Shown here one piece after another: positions 13,221 through 61,998 of a stretch of 64,000 bases of DNA. The stretch is from Escherichia coli. Lineage in GTDB: Bacteria > Pseudomonadota > Gammaproteobacteria > Enterobacterales > Enterobacteriaceae. A model generated the notes under the pieces. The model made no database searches. It was not told where the DNA came from and saw nothing but the letters and a program-made list of their open reading frames with translations. The DNA lies in assembly GCF_030013595.1 (NCBI RefSeq), contig NZ_CP122768.1, one strand, 5' to 3'. Positions within the stretch are counted from its first letter, which is position 1; each line of letters starts with the position of its first letter. The position numbers and the translations under genes are program-made.

Positions 13221-13246
13221 GGTTGTTACCTCGTTACCTTTGGTCG

Positions 13247-13282
13247 AAAAAAAAGCCCGCACTGTCAGGTGCGGGCTTTTTT
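13247..13282 (-). terminator. thr operon attenuator terminator
   Basis: GCCCGCA/TGCGGGC hairpin (13255-13276) flanked by A8 and T6, between thrL and thrA. Confidence 0.8.
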
Positions 13283-13300
13283 CTGTGTTTCCTGTACGCG

Positions 13301-13369
<69 letters not shown>

Positions 13370-46847: not shown

Positions 46848-47432
46848 TTACTCCATAACAGGGACCGCAGGCCACTCAATATCAGGTGCAGTTGATGTAT
46901 CAACACGGTTCAGCAACACCCGATACTTTTTCCAGGCTTCCAGCAATGAGTTTTCTTCCTCCGTTGCGATTTCCAGATCTACAGCATCCTGAAGTGGCGC
47001 AATATGCTCACTGGCTACCTGCATCAGGTTGTTTTTTGTTTCTTCCGCCTCCCGGATCCGGAACAGTTTTTCTGCTTCCGTATCCTTCAACCAGGCTGTG
47101 CCGTTCCACTTCTGATATTCCCCTTCCGGCGATAACCAGGTAACATTTTCCGGTAACGGACCGAGTTCAGAAATAAATAACGCGTCGCCGGAAGCCACGT
47201 CATAAACCGTTTTACCCCGATGATCTTCAACGAGATGCCACGATGACTCATCACTGTTGAAAACAGCCACGAAGCCAGCCGGAATATCTGGCGGTGCAAT
47301 ATCGGTACTGTTTGCTGGCAGACCTGTATGAGGCGGAATATATGCGTCACCTTCACCAATAAATTCATTAGTTCCGGCCAGCAGATTATAAATTTTTATG
47401 GTCCGTGGTTGTTCACTCATTCTGAATGCCAT
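46848..47432 (-). CDS. tfa: Tail fiber assembly protein Tfa
   Basis: 194-aa [61 protein letters not shown]; reads as lambda Tfa. Confidence 0.9.
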
Positions 47433-57103: not shown

Positions 57104-57433
57104 CTATGCCACGACCTGTTCAAAATCTGCCGTTATGGTTACCCACAGCGCCCCCACGCTTGCCGACCATTTACGACAAACCACCCTAATCGGTTTCCAG
57201 TCATAAGGTGGCGTCCACTGAAATGCGCGGACGCCACCGTGCCGTTCCAGAAAGGCTTTTAAAGATGGGTGTTCACATTTACGAACACGTATCGTCACGC
57301 TGTAAGTCGACAACTGGTTATTCAGTCCCGCCGCACGACGCTGTTCATAACCATCGCCCAGCTTCACTGTCACCACTTTCGGCTCTGATACCACATTCAT
57401 ATCCGGGCGCACTTTCCAGTGAAACGTCTCCAT
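57104..57433 (-). CDS. M: Minor tail protein M
   Basis: 109-aa ORF METFHWKVRPDMNVVSEPKVVTVKLGDGYEQRRAAGL; lambda gpM-like. Confidence 0.85.
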   Translation of the reverse strand: METFHWKVRPDMNVVSEPKVVTVKLGDGYEQRRAAGLNNQLSTYSVTIRVRKCEHPSLKAFLERHGGVRAFQWTPPYDWKPIRVVCRKWSASVGALWVTITADFEQVVA

Positions 57434-60400
57434 TACCGATATGCTCCACTTAACCGACCACCATCACGGGCCTGCTGTTGCATAAAGTCCGCTGCCGCTT
57501 TTTTCCCAAGGTCATAAACCACCTTCAGGGCAGCCGGACCTATCTGCCCGTTCGTGCCATCGTTATTGATCTCAATGTTGTACTGCGGGGCAAACATCGC
57601 CATACCTGAACCACCAATATCCGCCACAACCCCCAGCTTACCGTCAGCACCACGACGCAGTGGCAGAATGGCTTCAGGTCCAGCTTCCCCCATCACACCC
57701 GCGCCTTTTGCAAAAGCAAAAAACGTCGGACGGTTAACCACCGTGCCACTGTAACGACTCAAATCAGCAGACTGATAAATCCCCCCATTGGCATTCAGGG
57801 AAAGGCTGCTGAGATCAAATCCCAGTACACTGCCAATCCCTTTTATCGATTTCATCATGGTTGCCTGCGCCAGGATTTTCGCCATATCTGACAGCACCGA
57901 AGAGGTGAAGGATTTGAAGTTGAGTTTGCCGGTAGTGACAAAAGTTGCCAGGCCATTTCCCATGTTGCTGAAGGCTGATGAGAACACCTGTTCTGCTGTT
58001 CCTGCCGTATTGTCTGCATCCACGGTAAAATCCTGAAATGCACGCAGGACTCCGTTTTTCCAGTTACCCTGCACAACTTCAAGCTGTTGCCAGTAACGGC
58101 GATTCTCATTCAGTTGTCGGTTCAGGCTCTCCGTCAGCGCCTGCTCGGCCTTTCTGTAGTCATCCGTGTTATATGTCCCTTTCTGCTCACTATCCCGCCT
58201 CAACTGCTCCAGCTGTTGCTGGTATTTCTGGCGAAGACTCAGTTGTACCTGATATCGCTGCCGCTGCTGATCACCCATACCCACCGTGGCGATATCCAGG
58301 TCATGTTGCTGACGCTGAGCGCGCTCTTCTTCAGCCAGTTGACTGGTCAGCTGAATTGTTTTTTTCTTCAGATCGTTGAGTGCCGTCTGTTTCTGAAGCT
58401 CCTGCTGTTTTACATCCAGCAGCGTCAGTGCCTGAATCAGTTCATCTTTACGGGCCAGCACACTCTTTTCATCTGCCGTCAGTTTTTTCCCGTCCAGATC
58501 GCTGATGCGCTGCTGCAGAGCCAGAAGCTGTTTATGCGCTTCTGTCATCTTTTCAGTGGCAATGCCTGCTGACTGTCTTGCAGCAGCAATCTGTCCTTCC
58601 ACCTGTGCCTGTTGCTGACTGTACTGCAGCAATAACCGGGTGGCCTCATCATTACGGGGTTCGCGTGTTTTTTTCTTACCGGATGCCAGGGCTTTCTCGT
58701 AACGTTCATTTTCACGTTGTATCGCCGCATCCCTGACAGCCTGATCGGCGTACTGCATGGCATTAATACGCGCAATTTCACGCTGATGTCGTGCTGCTTC
58801 CGTTTCATTCATCCGGTTCAGTGCAGCATTTTCAGCATTACGGCGTTTCTGTTGCTCCTGATAATTCCGCTCTGCCTGCTCTTTTGCATCCTGCAAATCC
58901 TTCTGGCGTTTTTTCTCCTGAAGCTCGTTAAGACGCTGCTGATCGTACTCAACCTGAGAAGATGATGCCGTCCAGGGGAGTCTTTTCGCCCGCGACACTT
59001 TCTCCTGTAAAGCGGCAATCTGTTCATCCAGCGAGTCTTCACGACCAATATTCATGGCCGCATCCCAGAAACGACTCCATAAATCAGACAGATACTTCAG
59101 CGTACTGCCCAGCGCATTGAGGTTATTATCAATATCCGCAGTACGCCGACCGGTTTCCTCTGCCAGTGCAGACATGGCTATCCGTGCCGCATCACTGGAC
59201 CGCCCCTGTTCCCCAAGGACGCGTATCTGTTCAAGCTGAGTGGCAGTAAGAAAATGCAGCTCATTGTCCAGAGCCTTCGCGGCATTTACAGGATCATCCT
59301 TCAGCCGCTTAAACTGATTTATGGTATCGCTGACCGACTGGCCAACCGATCGCTCCATCTGTGCGGCAGCTCTCGCCACCATACCGATATCGTTTCCACG
59401 AAATGCACCACTCCCCACCACCTGAGCCAGCGCACCGGCTGCAGCATGTTGCGTAATACCATTCCCGGAAATAGCACGACTGAGCGTCCACAGCTGCCCG
59501 GCAGTGACTCCGGCATAATGCCCCGTCAGCGACAACTGGCGGTTAAATTCTTCCCCCTCCTTCTGACCATCATACCAGGCTTTACCCAGACCATAGACGG
59601 CCGCGGCAATACCGCCAATAACCCCACCTGGCATCATGCCTTTCGGTGACATCAGTGTGTCTATCCATCCGGCACGGTTAGCCAGCGTTATCCCGGATCC
59701 CCTCAGCGCACCTAAATTGCCGCGAGCCAGTTCACCTATCAGAACGCCTATCTCCTGGCGGGCCGCTGCACTTTTCAGACCCAGCGAATGCGTGGCTTTT
59801 CCTGCCTGCTCCATTTTGCGGATATACACTTCTGCAGCACTGCTTACCCCCAGCTGGGCAGCCTTAGCACGAAGCAACTCAGAAGAAGAAAGATTCTGGC
59901 GGGTTGCCTGCTCTTTAAGCTGACGGATAAACGCCACTTTCTGTCGGGTAGCCTCTGCCTCAGCCTGCGTAAGAACACGGGTTTTCGCCGTAACCTCAGA
60001 AATCAGCGCCAGATAATCCTGCTGACCAATCCCGCCACTGTTTCTGGCCTGTCGGATCTGCTGCTGAATACGCTGTAATTCCTGCAGCCCCGCACTGGCC
60101 TGTTTCACACTGTCAATCTGACGATAAAACGCAGCAGCCGCTTTATCCTGAGCCTCCGCCAGAGCCATGGCCTGCGCCTGTTCCTCGCGCATTTTCTGGC
60201 TCAGTGCCTCCATACGCTGGCGGGTTTGCTCCACCTCGCGGGCCATGCGTTCATGAGCCTGTGCGCTCTTCTCCACCGTCTGCGCATGGACGGATGCGGC
60301 TGTTGCAGCCGAAGAAGCCGCCTGCATTGTCTGCCGGGCGGCCTGAGTCTGACGCTCCATAAAACGCTGCATACGGGCAGAAGACCGTTCTGCATCGCTG

Positions 60401-60507
60401 GCTGTACCATTCAGAAGGTTTTTGATACGGGGAATTTCATTTTTAAACTCTGCCGCATCAATCCCCAAATCAATGACCAGGTTGGCTATCTGGTCCATAA
60501 CGCACAC
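57433..60507 (-). CDS. H: Tail tape measure protein H
   Basis: 1024-aa ORF, coiled-coil-rich (Q/E/R/A-rich) with glycine-rich C-terminal region; lambda gpH position. Confidence 0.85.
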   Translation of the reverse strand: MCVMDQIANLVIDLGIDAAEFKNEIPRIKNLLNGTASDAERSSARMQRFMERQTQAARQTMQAASSAATAASVHAQTVEKSAQAHERMAREVEQTRQRMEALSQKMREEQAQAMALAEAQDKAAAAFYRQIDSVKQASAGLQELQRIQQQIRQARNSGGIGQQDYLALISEVTAKTRVLTQAEAEATRQKVAFIRQLKEQATRQNLSSSELLRAKAAQLGVSSAAEVYIRKMEQAGKATHSLGLKSAAARQEIGVLIGELARGNLGALRGSGITLANRAGWIDTLMSPKGMMPGGVIGGIAAAVYGLGKAWYDGQKEGEEFNRQLSLTGHYAGVTAGQLWTLSRAISGNGITQHAAAGALAQVVGSGAFRGNDIGMVARAAAQMERSVGQSVSDTINQFKRLKDDPVNAAKALDNELHFLTATQLEQIRVLGEQGRSSDAARIAMSALAEETGRRTADIDNNLNALGSTLKYLSDLWSRFWDAAMNIGREDSLDEQIAALQEKVSRAKRLPWTASSSQVEYDQQRLNELQEKKRQKDLQDAKEQAERNYQEQQKRRNAENAALNRMNETEAARHQREIARINAMQYADQAVRDAAIQRENERYEKALASGKKKTREPRNDEATRLLLQYSQQQAQVEGQIAAARQSAGIATEKMTEAHKQLLALQQRISDLDGKKLTADEKSVLARKDELIQALTLLDVKQQELQKQTALNDLKKKTIQLTSQLAEEERAQRQQHDLDIATVGMGDQQRQRYQVQLSLRQKYQQQLEQLRRDSEQKGTYNTDDYRKAEQALTESLNRQLNENRRYWQQLEVVQGNWKNGVLRAFQDFTVDADNTAGTAEQVFSSAFSNMGNGLATFVTTGKLNFKSFTSSVLSDMAKILAQATMMKSIKGIGSVLGFDLSSLSLNANGGIYQSADLSRYSGTVVNRPTFFAFAKGAGVMGEAGPEAILPLRRGADGKLGVVADIGGSGMAMFAPQYNIEINNDGTNGQIGPAALKVVYDLGKKAAADFMQQQARDGGRLSGAYR

Positions 60508-60799
60508 CTCCGGAAATACCTTCCCCCAGATGCATCAGTTCTTCGTCCGTTCGCTCCGGTATCCCGTTCTCTTCCGGTAAAAGGCTGAAATCAGCCACCG
60601 CAGCATCACTGCTACCGGACACCATTCTCACGATCAATGCCTTCAGCGAGGCAAACTGCGCATCCATCCACACATCACTGAAGCTCTGCATCCGGAAATA
60701 ATCGCCCCACTCACCAAGCTCAGTGGCCGACATTTCCGACAGCATCCGCCGCCAGTCTGCCCGCCGGAACTCCCGGGCAAGCCGCATGACAAACTGCAT
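60470..60799 (-). CDS. T: Tail assembly chaperone T segment (expected to be expressed as G-T fusion by -1 frameshift)
   Basis: ORF in the -1 frame relative to G and overlapping its end; lambda G/GT arrangement. Confidence 0.65.
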   Translation of the reverse strand: MQFVMRLAREFRRADWRRMLSEMSATELGEWGDYFRMQSFSDVWMDAQFASLKALIVRMVSGSSDAAVADFSLLPEENGIPERTDEELMHLGEGISGGVRYGPDSQPGH

Positions 60800-60807
60800 T
60801 TCCCGCG

Positions 60808-61236
60808 TCAGGACTTTTCCGGCGTCAGCACCTCATGCTCCAAATCCCCGGCATTCTCAATGGCTCCCATACCGCTCAGCGACAGAACCATCTCCGCCCC
60901 CGCTCCCAGGGCATCATACGACCATGTTGTAATAACGGATGCGCAAAGCGTCTCAACATCCTGAGACTGTTCCGCATTCCACAGTGAGCGGGAAACCAGC
61001 CAGGCATTGATATCCATCCCCATCCGCAGAAAAGCAATCTGTCGTTCAGCCTCCGGCAGTTCTCCCTCTTCGGCATCAAACTTTGCCGTTCGCTGCTGAA
61101 CAAACGCCAGATATTCAATTCTCTGCAGCCCGGACAGCTCACTGAGCACCACGGACTGCTTTTCATAATTAAACGTGCCCTGTTTCAGAAACATCATGTT
61201 CTCCACCTGCAAAAAAGCCCCGGATAACCGGGGCAA
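60808..61236 (-). CDS. G: Tail assembly chaperone G
   Basis: 142-aa ORF ending EHEVLTPEKS; position between V and T. Confidence 0.8.
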   Translation of the reverse strand: MPRLSGAFLQVENMMFLKQGTFNYEKQSVVLSELSGLQRIEYLAFVQQRTAKFDAEEGELPEAERQIAFLRMGMDINAWLVSRSLWNAEQSQDVETLCASVITTWSYDALGAGAEMVLSLSGMGAIENAGDLEHEVLTPEKS

Positions 61237-61254: not shown

Positions 61255-61998
61255 TTAACCTGCGGCGCTGACAGCCACCGCAGCCACTGCCACAAAATCG
61301 CCGTCAGAAGTCATGCCCACAATGCTGACACTGCCCTGCTTCACGCCTTTCACCGTGGCCACAAGCCCGTTCAGGGTCACCGTGGCAGTCTGTGGATCTG
61401 TCGAATGCACACTGATCGCTTTGTCACTGGCTCCGTCAGGTTTTACTGTAAAGGTCAGCGTGGTGGTTGCTCCCACTTTTACACTGGCAGATGCCGGTGA
61501 TACTGTCAGCCCGGTAACGCTCACGGTTTCAGTGCCTTCCTCTGCCAGATACGGACGCCCCACACCGCTGATTTTCACTGTGCGGGTCATCACGTCTTTT
61601 GAGGCAATGGTTTTACCCAGTGAGCTCAGCCAGCCACGGAAAACATCAACAGTGCCGTTGGGATATTTGATACGAAACGCGCAGACTTCACCGGAGTCGA
61701 ACAACTGAACCAGTTTTTTCTGCCCGCTGTCACCCGGACGCCAGGCCAGCGTCGCCGAAGTATCACCGACGGATTTCTGCCCCTGGGTTGTCGTTTTCCA
61801 GTCTGCATCTTCATCATCGAGATAAGTGTCATCTTCTGCATCAGCGGTCATTTCGCCAGGTTGCAGATCCTTCACCATCGCAAGACGCAGCCAGTCAGTG
61901 TCCGATAAAGGGTTCGCAAACGCATCGCCCTTGCCGGTGTACATCCAGAACGTCGTTCCCGCACCTTTCGTTTTTGCCAGTGGATTTGGTGTGGTCAT
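61255..61998 (-). CDS. V: Major tail protein V with C-terminal Ig-like domain
   Basis: From internal Met: MTTPNPLAKTKGAGTTFWMYTGKGDAFANPLSDTDWLRLAMVKDL (lambda gpV-like), C-terminal Ig-like segment; track ORF starts 25 codons earlier. Confidence 0.85.
   Translation of the reverse strand: MTTPNPLAKTKGAGTTFWMYTGKGDAFANPLSDTDWLRLAMVKDLQPGEMTADAEDDTYLDDEDADWKTTTQGQKSVGDTSATLAWRPGDSGQKKLVQLFDSGEVCAFRIKYPNGTVDVFRGWLSSLGKTIASKDVMTRTVKISGVGRPYLAEEGTETVSVTGLTVSPASASVKVGATTTLTFTVKPDGASDKAISVHSTDPQTATVTLNGLVATVKGVKQGSVSIVGMTSDGDFVAVAAVAVSAAG

Follow-up and report, generated by a model that had tools for sequence, protein, structure and literature searches.

In phage lambda, the tail genes G and T are linked by a programmed −1 ribosomal frameshift, described by Levin, Hendrix and Casjens (1993) and by Xu, Hendrix and Duda (2004, 2013, 2014), as these studies are cited in PMC5009743, where the ratio of G to the GT fusion is given as approximately 30:1. 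Several other systems bear on how such a shift may proceed. The tetramer A_AAG is the most shift-prone in E. coli, at about 0.15% and barely over background when no stimulator is present; A_AA.G reaches 5.6% with a pseudoknot, and G_GG.A_AA.G is among the best heptamers (PMC4066793). The insertion sequence IS1222 carries a hexanucleotide site, G_CGA_AAG, that relies mainly on A_AAG and involves essentially no P-site re-pairing, and heptamers in which X_XX is G_GA form a recognised intermediate class (PMC5009743). For the E. coli dnaX site, A AAA AAG, a mutant series was produced by Tsuchihashi and Brown (1992), as tabulated in PMC6787027 (Supplementary Table 3); in the dnaX context in vivo, A AAA AAG (wild type) shifts at 81%, G GGA AAG at 57% and A GAA AAG at 20%. 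The locus analyzed here, which is compared with these systems below, lies in a 64,000-nucleotide stretch of an Escherichia coli genome (NZ_CP122768.1), referred to in its entirety as the window.

The window carries a lambdoid tail module

The locus belongs to a lambdoid prophage tail module on the minus strand, in which the gene order is V-G-T-H. It shows 97.6-99.6% DNA identity to phages Ayreon, phi458, cdtI and mEp460, and the 821-bp segment comprising G and T is present, at 95% identity or above, in 1848 of the 5426 complete E. coli genomes. The relevant features, in the order of transcription, are as follows.

61255..61998, minus strand: V, the major tail tube gene, with a C-terminal Ig-like domain; lambda V homologue, directly upstream of G
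61207..61234, minus strand: intrinsic-terminator-like hairpin between V and G, from a terminator scan
60808..61194, minus strand: G, tail assembly chaperone, 128 aa from the second ATG, stop TGA at 60810-60808
60833..60835, minus strand: TGA closing the T frame upstream, from frame translation and computation of the overlap
60829..60834, minus strand: SD-like GAGGTG, separated from the heptamer downstream by 8 nt (9 nt when counted from the GAGGT core)
60814..60820, minus strand: candidate slippery heptamer G GAA AAG, read in the 0 frame as GAA (Glu) and AAG (Lys) and after a shift as GGA and AAA
60470..60814, minus strand: T segment, in the −1 frame from GTC onward, stop at 60472-60470; the G at 60814 would be read twice
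57433..60498, minus strand: H, tape measure gene (Pfam TMP_2, Tape_meas_lam_C and TMP_4), start as annotated in Ayreon, mEp460 and RefSeq

The gene assignments rest on Pfam matches for V (Phage_TTP_12, 7.9e-67; Big_2, 4.8e-12), G (Phage_TAC_2, 1.8e-39) and the T-frame ORF (Phage_tail_T, 5e-15), with Ayreon and mEp460 labelling the 744-nt V coding sequence as major tail protein and RefSeq labelling G as gpG. Plus-strand ORFs at the coordinates of the locus had no family match, and Rfam and tRNA scans of the window gave none at the G/T locus. Elsewhere in the window, Rfam matches were obtained for the threonine operon leader (13246-13365, minus strand), naRNA4 (26281-26359, minus strand) and IS009 (46891-47089, minus strand); because of these matches, the window represents an E. 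coli chromosome carrying a prophage and not a free phage genome.

Some details of the gene boundaries were also recorded. The hairpin between V and G is a strong one and consists of GCCCCGG and CCGGGGC around a TTAT loop (61234-61217), forming seven G-C pairs, and is followed by TTTTTT. The same feature is annotated as a terminator in Ayreon, mEp460 and N15. Lying inside the late tail operon, the hairpin could lower the expression of G, T and H relative to V unless antiterminated. G starts with a tandem ATG ATG (61192-61197, minus strand, with the first ATG at 61197), and is annotated from the first ATG in Ayreon and from the second in RefSeq; the conserved N-terminus MFLK, and a distance of 6 nt to GGTGGAG, are obtained only with the second ATG. 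At the downstream boundary, the ATG of H sits 29 nt inside the 3' end of T (60470-60507, minus strand), where the codons for the conserved C-terminal GGVRYG of T (GGA GGT GTG CGT TAT GGA) also encode the H SD (GGAGGTG) and the H ATG.

A single candidate heptamer in the G/T overlap

The last codons of G are GAG GTG CTG ACG CCG GAA AAG TCC TGA. A previous sequence-only reading of this locus had singled out the CCG GAA AAG TCC TGA at the end of G and had placed T in the −1 frame relative to G, overlapping its end as in lambda; the codon listing confirms the former, and the Pfam matches of G and T, the 25-nt overlap and the V-G-T-H order bear out the latter. The T frame is open from 60832 and closed immediately upstream by the TGA at 60835-60833, and hence any shift must fall between that TGA and the G stop. 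When all in-phase heptamers of the 25-nt overlap were listed, an identical YYY triplet was present only in G GAA AAG, and none of the in-phase positions carried a canonical XXXYYYZ heptamer. The same reading had described the site as deviating from X_XXY_YYZ and had conceded that a canonical heptamer elsewhere in the overlap might have been overlooked; none exists. In G GAA AAG, bases 1-3 are G-G-A and not three identical bases, while the YYY triplet is AAA followed by G, allowing AAG to re-pair as AAA. By sequence the site falls in the intermediate G_GA class, in which a GAN codon in the P site re-pairs with GGA, keeping two of three pairs and adding a G.U pair or a mismatch. It shares this P-site exchange with the G_GA heptamers of insect-specific flaviviruses, umbra-, diantho- and mesoniviruses (PMC5009743), but those sites are from eukaryotic RNA viruses and combine U-rich A-site codons with strong 3' structures.

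The motif in itself carries little information. GGAAAAG occurs 15 times on the two strands of the window, against 9.3 expected, and the chance of an in-phase instance in one given 25-nt overlap is about 1e-3. Since GGAAAAG is not rare in the window, the case for a frameshift site rests on its position and on its conservation across relatives, and not on the motif alone. A shift at this site would yield a GT fusion of approximately 241 aa, made up of G codons 1-127 and the T segment, with the junction ...TPEK followed by VLTREMQFVMRLAREF...

The heptamer is conserved across diverged relatives

The locus was compared with lambda and fifteen other annotated phage loci, and three main alleles were found to occupy the junction codon pair.

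G GGA AAG: lambda, Turner, PhiR5_1, PhiR12_1, PhiR29_2
A AAA AAG: the two Stx-converting phages sampled, Stx2d_112808 and Stx1_9793
G GAA AAG: the window, Ayreon, mEp460, Gifsy-1, Gifsy-2, Fels-1, N15, HK225, mEp213, Eeyore

The lambda heptamer G GGA AAG, to which the sequence-only reading had referred, is indeed present in lambda as GCG GGA AAG at the collinear position, one base different from the G GAA AAG of the window. The alignment of G and T with lambda that this reading had proposed as a check places the junctions of the GT fusions in register (...SAGK followed by VFDGELSFALKLAREM in lambda, ...TPEK followed by VLTREMQFVMRLAREF in the window), and the junction residue, Lys128, is invariant in 9 diverse GT fusions. 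The window and lambda have in common the Pfam families, the gene order, the −1 frame, the position of the junction (the invariant Lys, then V-F/L...LARE) and the A-site change from AAG to AAA. The two loci differ in that G and GT are only about 35% identical to their lambda counterparts, in that the G stop follows the site after one codon in the window and after five in lambda, and in the length of the G/T overlap, which is 25 nt in the window and 64 nt in lambda.

A protein-profile search of viral contigs extended the comparison to 80 loci with 34-100% identity, in 69 of which G could be called. An in-phase GGAAAAG inside the overlap was present in 62 of the 69, even though the 30 nt upstream are almost wholly diverged between lineages, and in an alignment of 24 sequences no stretch of seven adjacent columns other than the heptamer is fully invariant. 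Other junctions were rare among the 69 loci, with A GAA AAG TAA in two (L073, L074), G GCA AAA TAG in four (L070-L072 and L096) and a broken T frame in one. Six loci (L086-L091) carry both candidate sites, G GAA AAG and GCA AAA TAG. The T frame is shortened or broken in two viral contigs, L028 (62 aa) and L068 (20 aa), which probably reflect decaying prophages or sequencing errors.

The position and identity of the 0-frame stop vary around this constant site. In the clade of the window (60808-60813 in the window; L017-L096), the stop lies one codon past the heptamer in most loci, may be TGA, TAA or TAG, and is built from a −1-frame Leu codon plus the next base, whereas in lambda and N15 it lies five codons downstream and is built from the invariant Glu-Leu codons (GAG CTG A). 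Genes 14 and 15 of N15 have the identical GGAAAAG in the same phase and at the same junction as the window, as do HK225, mEp213 and Eeyore, but N15 GT is only about 36% identical to that of the window, its 0-frame stop is the more distant one and it has no upstream SD-like sequence. The Salmonella prophages Gifsy-1, Gifsy-2 and Fels-1 are closer: they carry CCG GAA AAG YCC TGA and belong to the same G/T protein clade (54-60% identity), with flanks that have diverged (68-70% nucleotide identity) and an upstream SD-like element weaker than that of the window. The N15 GenBank record (AF064539) has long marked the same GGAAAAG with a misc_feature as a 'slippery sequence for -1 translational frameshift', and in the records of Gifsy-1 and Gifsy-2 a frameshift product is said to include T. 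G GAA AAG is therefore an already known variant and not an anomaly. From its conservation, the heptamer is in all likelihood a functional −1 frameshift signal.

Probable two-tRNA slippage and alternative origins of the T product

We consider it highly probable that T is expressed through programmed −1 ribosomal frameshifting as in lambda G/GT, most likely by a two-tRNA slip. Under this model, most ribosomes translating G would terminate at the TGA and release the chaperone G, while a few per cent would move back by one base at G GAA AAG, read on in the T frame and produce GT (...TPEK-VLTRE...), the product that would join tube and tape-measure proteins as the tail is assembled. In the A site, tRNA-Lys (mnm5s2UUU) would move from AAG to AAA, the classic shifty step in E. 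coli. In the P site, tRNA-Glu (3'-CUU-5') would move from GAA to GGA, where the Watson-Crick pairs at positions 1 and 3 (G:C and A:U) would be kept and the middle pair would become G.U; pairing of the anticodon agrees on this point with the wobble that the sequence-only reading had called for. The lambda P-site exchange is different, since there GGA becomes GGG and only the third position changes.

The −1-frame codons GGA and AAA would never be decoded as such, which leaves several positions of the heptamer free of coding constraint. Codon usage at these positions was examined in 37 non-redundant GGAAAAG loci, with the same genes as background. The first G of the heptamer, a synonymous third-codon position (X1), is G in all 37 loci against a background G3 of 0.36-0.72, and is carried by five different codons (CCG in 23 loci, GCG in 9, CTG in 2, GAG in 2 and GTG in 1). 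All 37 loci likewise encode the Glu with GAA (background GAA:GAG 269:223) and the Lys with AAG (background AAA:AAG 125:67). Selection would thus appear to act on the whole heptamer, including a base that is relevant only to P-site re-pairing, which favours a two-tRNA slip over a slip of tRNA-Lys alone. The 37-locus statistic rests on related sequences, however, and when the five codon families are taken as independent events the conservation of X1 has p of about 0.02, making it supportive rather than decisive with regard to two-tRNA slippage. Conservation of the −1-frame protein, in turn, begins exactly at the heptamer.

The alternative that fares best is a single-tRNA slip of tRNA-Lys on A_AAG, of the tetra- or hexanucleotide type exemplified by IS1222, in which the P-site tRNA-Glu does not re-pair. 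A_AAG is the minimal E. coli shift site, but heptamers are far more efficient than tetramers (PMC5009743, PMC4066793). A ACA AAG and A AUA AAG still shift at 22-29% in the dnaX context (PMC6787027). The relatives with A GAA AAG TAA and G GCA AAA TAG have poor P-site re-pairing, which shows that the family can do without it. Yet in every one of these relatives the stop codon directly abuts the slip site, a different and probably compensating context; the abutting stop may act as a 'shifty stop' that makes up for the poor P-site re-pairing. Together with the presence of G at X1 in 37 of 37 loci, at a synonymous position and across five codon families, these considerations make the single-tRNA slip unlikely for G GAA AAG.

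It is more improbable still that T is a gene in its own right, started at the ATG at 60799 with no frameshift, as GenBank and RefSeq entries have it. A 109-aa ATG ORF does exist (60470..60799), and it retains the entire Pfam Phage_tail_T match; in mEp460 and cdtI (L002, L097) and in the RefSeq PGAP annotation T is a stand-alone CDS, with no ribosomal-slippage join. The ATG, however, is absent in Gifsy-1 and Fels-1 (ELAFVM), in Gifsy-2, which has no Met there, and in N15 (ELKFAM), and the only purine-rich stretch upstream of it, GGGAA, abuts the ATG at a spacing of 1-2 nt and does not constitute a properly spaced SD. Moreover, the T-frame residues encoded 5' of the ATG, (V/A)-L-x-x-E, are conserved, with E133 invariant, and conservation of both the −1 overlap and the heptamer extends to synonymous sites. 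Independent initiation of T was rejected on this conservation evidence. Finally, productive transcriptional slippage in bacteria needs some 7-9 or more identical bases, so that an origin of GT by stuttering of RNA polymerase at the junction, where the A run is only four A's long and the conserved flanking GG and terminal G are in the codon phase that fits a tRNA re-pairing signature, has a negligible probability.

Stimulatory elements and expected efficiency

Programmed frameshift sites may be assisted by upstream SD-like sequences or by downstream RNA structure, as at dnaX, and both were sought here. The GAGGTG upstream of the heptamer in the window forms a duplex of −9.2 kcal/mol with the 3' end of 16S rRNA, within the top 8-13% of the background of the gene itself, and a stronger element, AAGGAGGTG, with a value of −14.5, is found in L030 and L039. 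No upstream SD-like element was detected in N15, HK225, mEp213, Eeyore, L092 and L093, despite the same heptamer being present in the first four. An SD-like stimulator is therefore unlikely to be a feature of the family as a whole, since it is missing in several lineages with the same heptamer. In the lineage of the window, the internal GAGGTG, 8-9 nt upstream of the site, may stimulate the shift somewhat, and would be at most a lineage-specific modulator.

Downstream of the heptamer, no conserved hairpin or pseudoknot was found by single-sequence folding, a local-hairpin test or RNAalifold. The 90 nt downstream fold no better than shuffled sequences (z = −1.09, single-sequence fold), local downstream hairpins in 48 loci have a mean quantile of 0.41 against the gene background, and RNAalifold on 24 loci returned −1.62 kcal/mol, with four pairs and zero compensatory changes. 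Conserved RNA structure would accordingly be expected to play no part in the shift. The comparison with dnaX illustrates the difference: the A-site exchange of tRNA-Lys from AAG to AAA is the same, and the dnaX mutant A GAA AAG also has the same P-site tRNA-Glu, but dnaX needs a conserved upstream SD and a downstream stem-loop to reach about 80%, whereas in the window a few per cent would be expected and no conserved stimulators were found.

No measured efficiency of G GAA AAG was found in the literature consulted, including the Sharma 2014 motif set (X_XXZ_ZZN only) and the Bock and Tsuchihashi tables; a full-text search on GGAAAAG frameshifting returned unrelated papers only, and the PRFect supplement does not list the slip sites. 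The efficiency was approached through published re-pairing costs. The fitted cost of the combined change [P1 G·C→A·C + P2 A·U→G·U] is 8.5 kJ/mol, compared to 3.8 for GGA→GGG (PMC6787027 supplement), with the authors' warning that position-1 and position-2 changes may be non-additive. G GAA AAG in the window pays the P2 term only, with one mismatch fewer than A GAA AAG. In a two-state calculation that reproduces the published values, G GAA AAG attains 0.3 times the G GGA AAG efficiency or more, and approximately equals it when the P1 mismatch is given the cost of other P1 mismatches. The published dnaX mutant data (A GAA AAG at 20%, G GGA AAG at 57%) suggest an efficiency similar to that of lambda, although the efficiency could be below lambda's, because bare A_AA.G is near background and no conserved stimulator was found.

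Distribution of the alleles and implications for the G/GT family

In a midpoint-rooted NJ tree of the GT fusions, GGAAAAG occurs to either side of the root and on almost every deep branch, with the lambda-type GGGAAAG and the Stx-type AAAAAAG confined to one nested clade; the tree is drawn from a sample biased to relatives of the window, without support values and with an uncertain root. Across the loci sampled, GGAAAAG is the prevailing allele of the G/GT family, and its distribution on the tree suggests that the textbook lambda site, GGGAAAG, may be the derived state. A broader proposal, which we put forward only tentatively and hold to be rather less likely than not to prove right as a whole, is that G GAA AAG is both ancestral and prevailing, that the tandem slip tolerates a middle G.U about as well as a third-position change, and that individual lineages, among them that of the window with its GAGGTG, tune the G:GT ratio by internal SD-like sequences and not by RNA structures.

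Recoding of this kind is well understood and the prophage module is very common in E. coli, so the frameshift at this locus matters little for discovery. Its consequences for annotation are more direct: the GT product is systematically absent from the annotation of an allele carried by about a third of complete E. coli genomes, and frameshift finders restricted to X_XXY_YYZ miss the commonest site of the family. The family also provides a natural one-position allelic series (G GGA AAG, G GAA AAG, A AAA AAG, A GAA AAG plus stop, and G GCA AAA plus stop), which could be used to calibrate models of P-site re-pairing.
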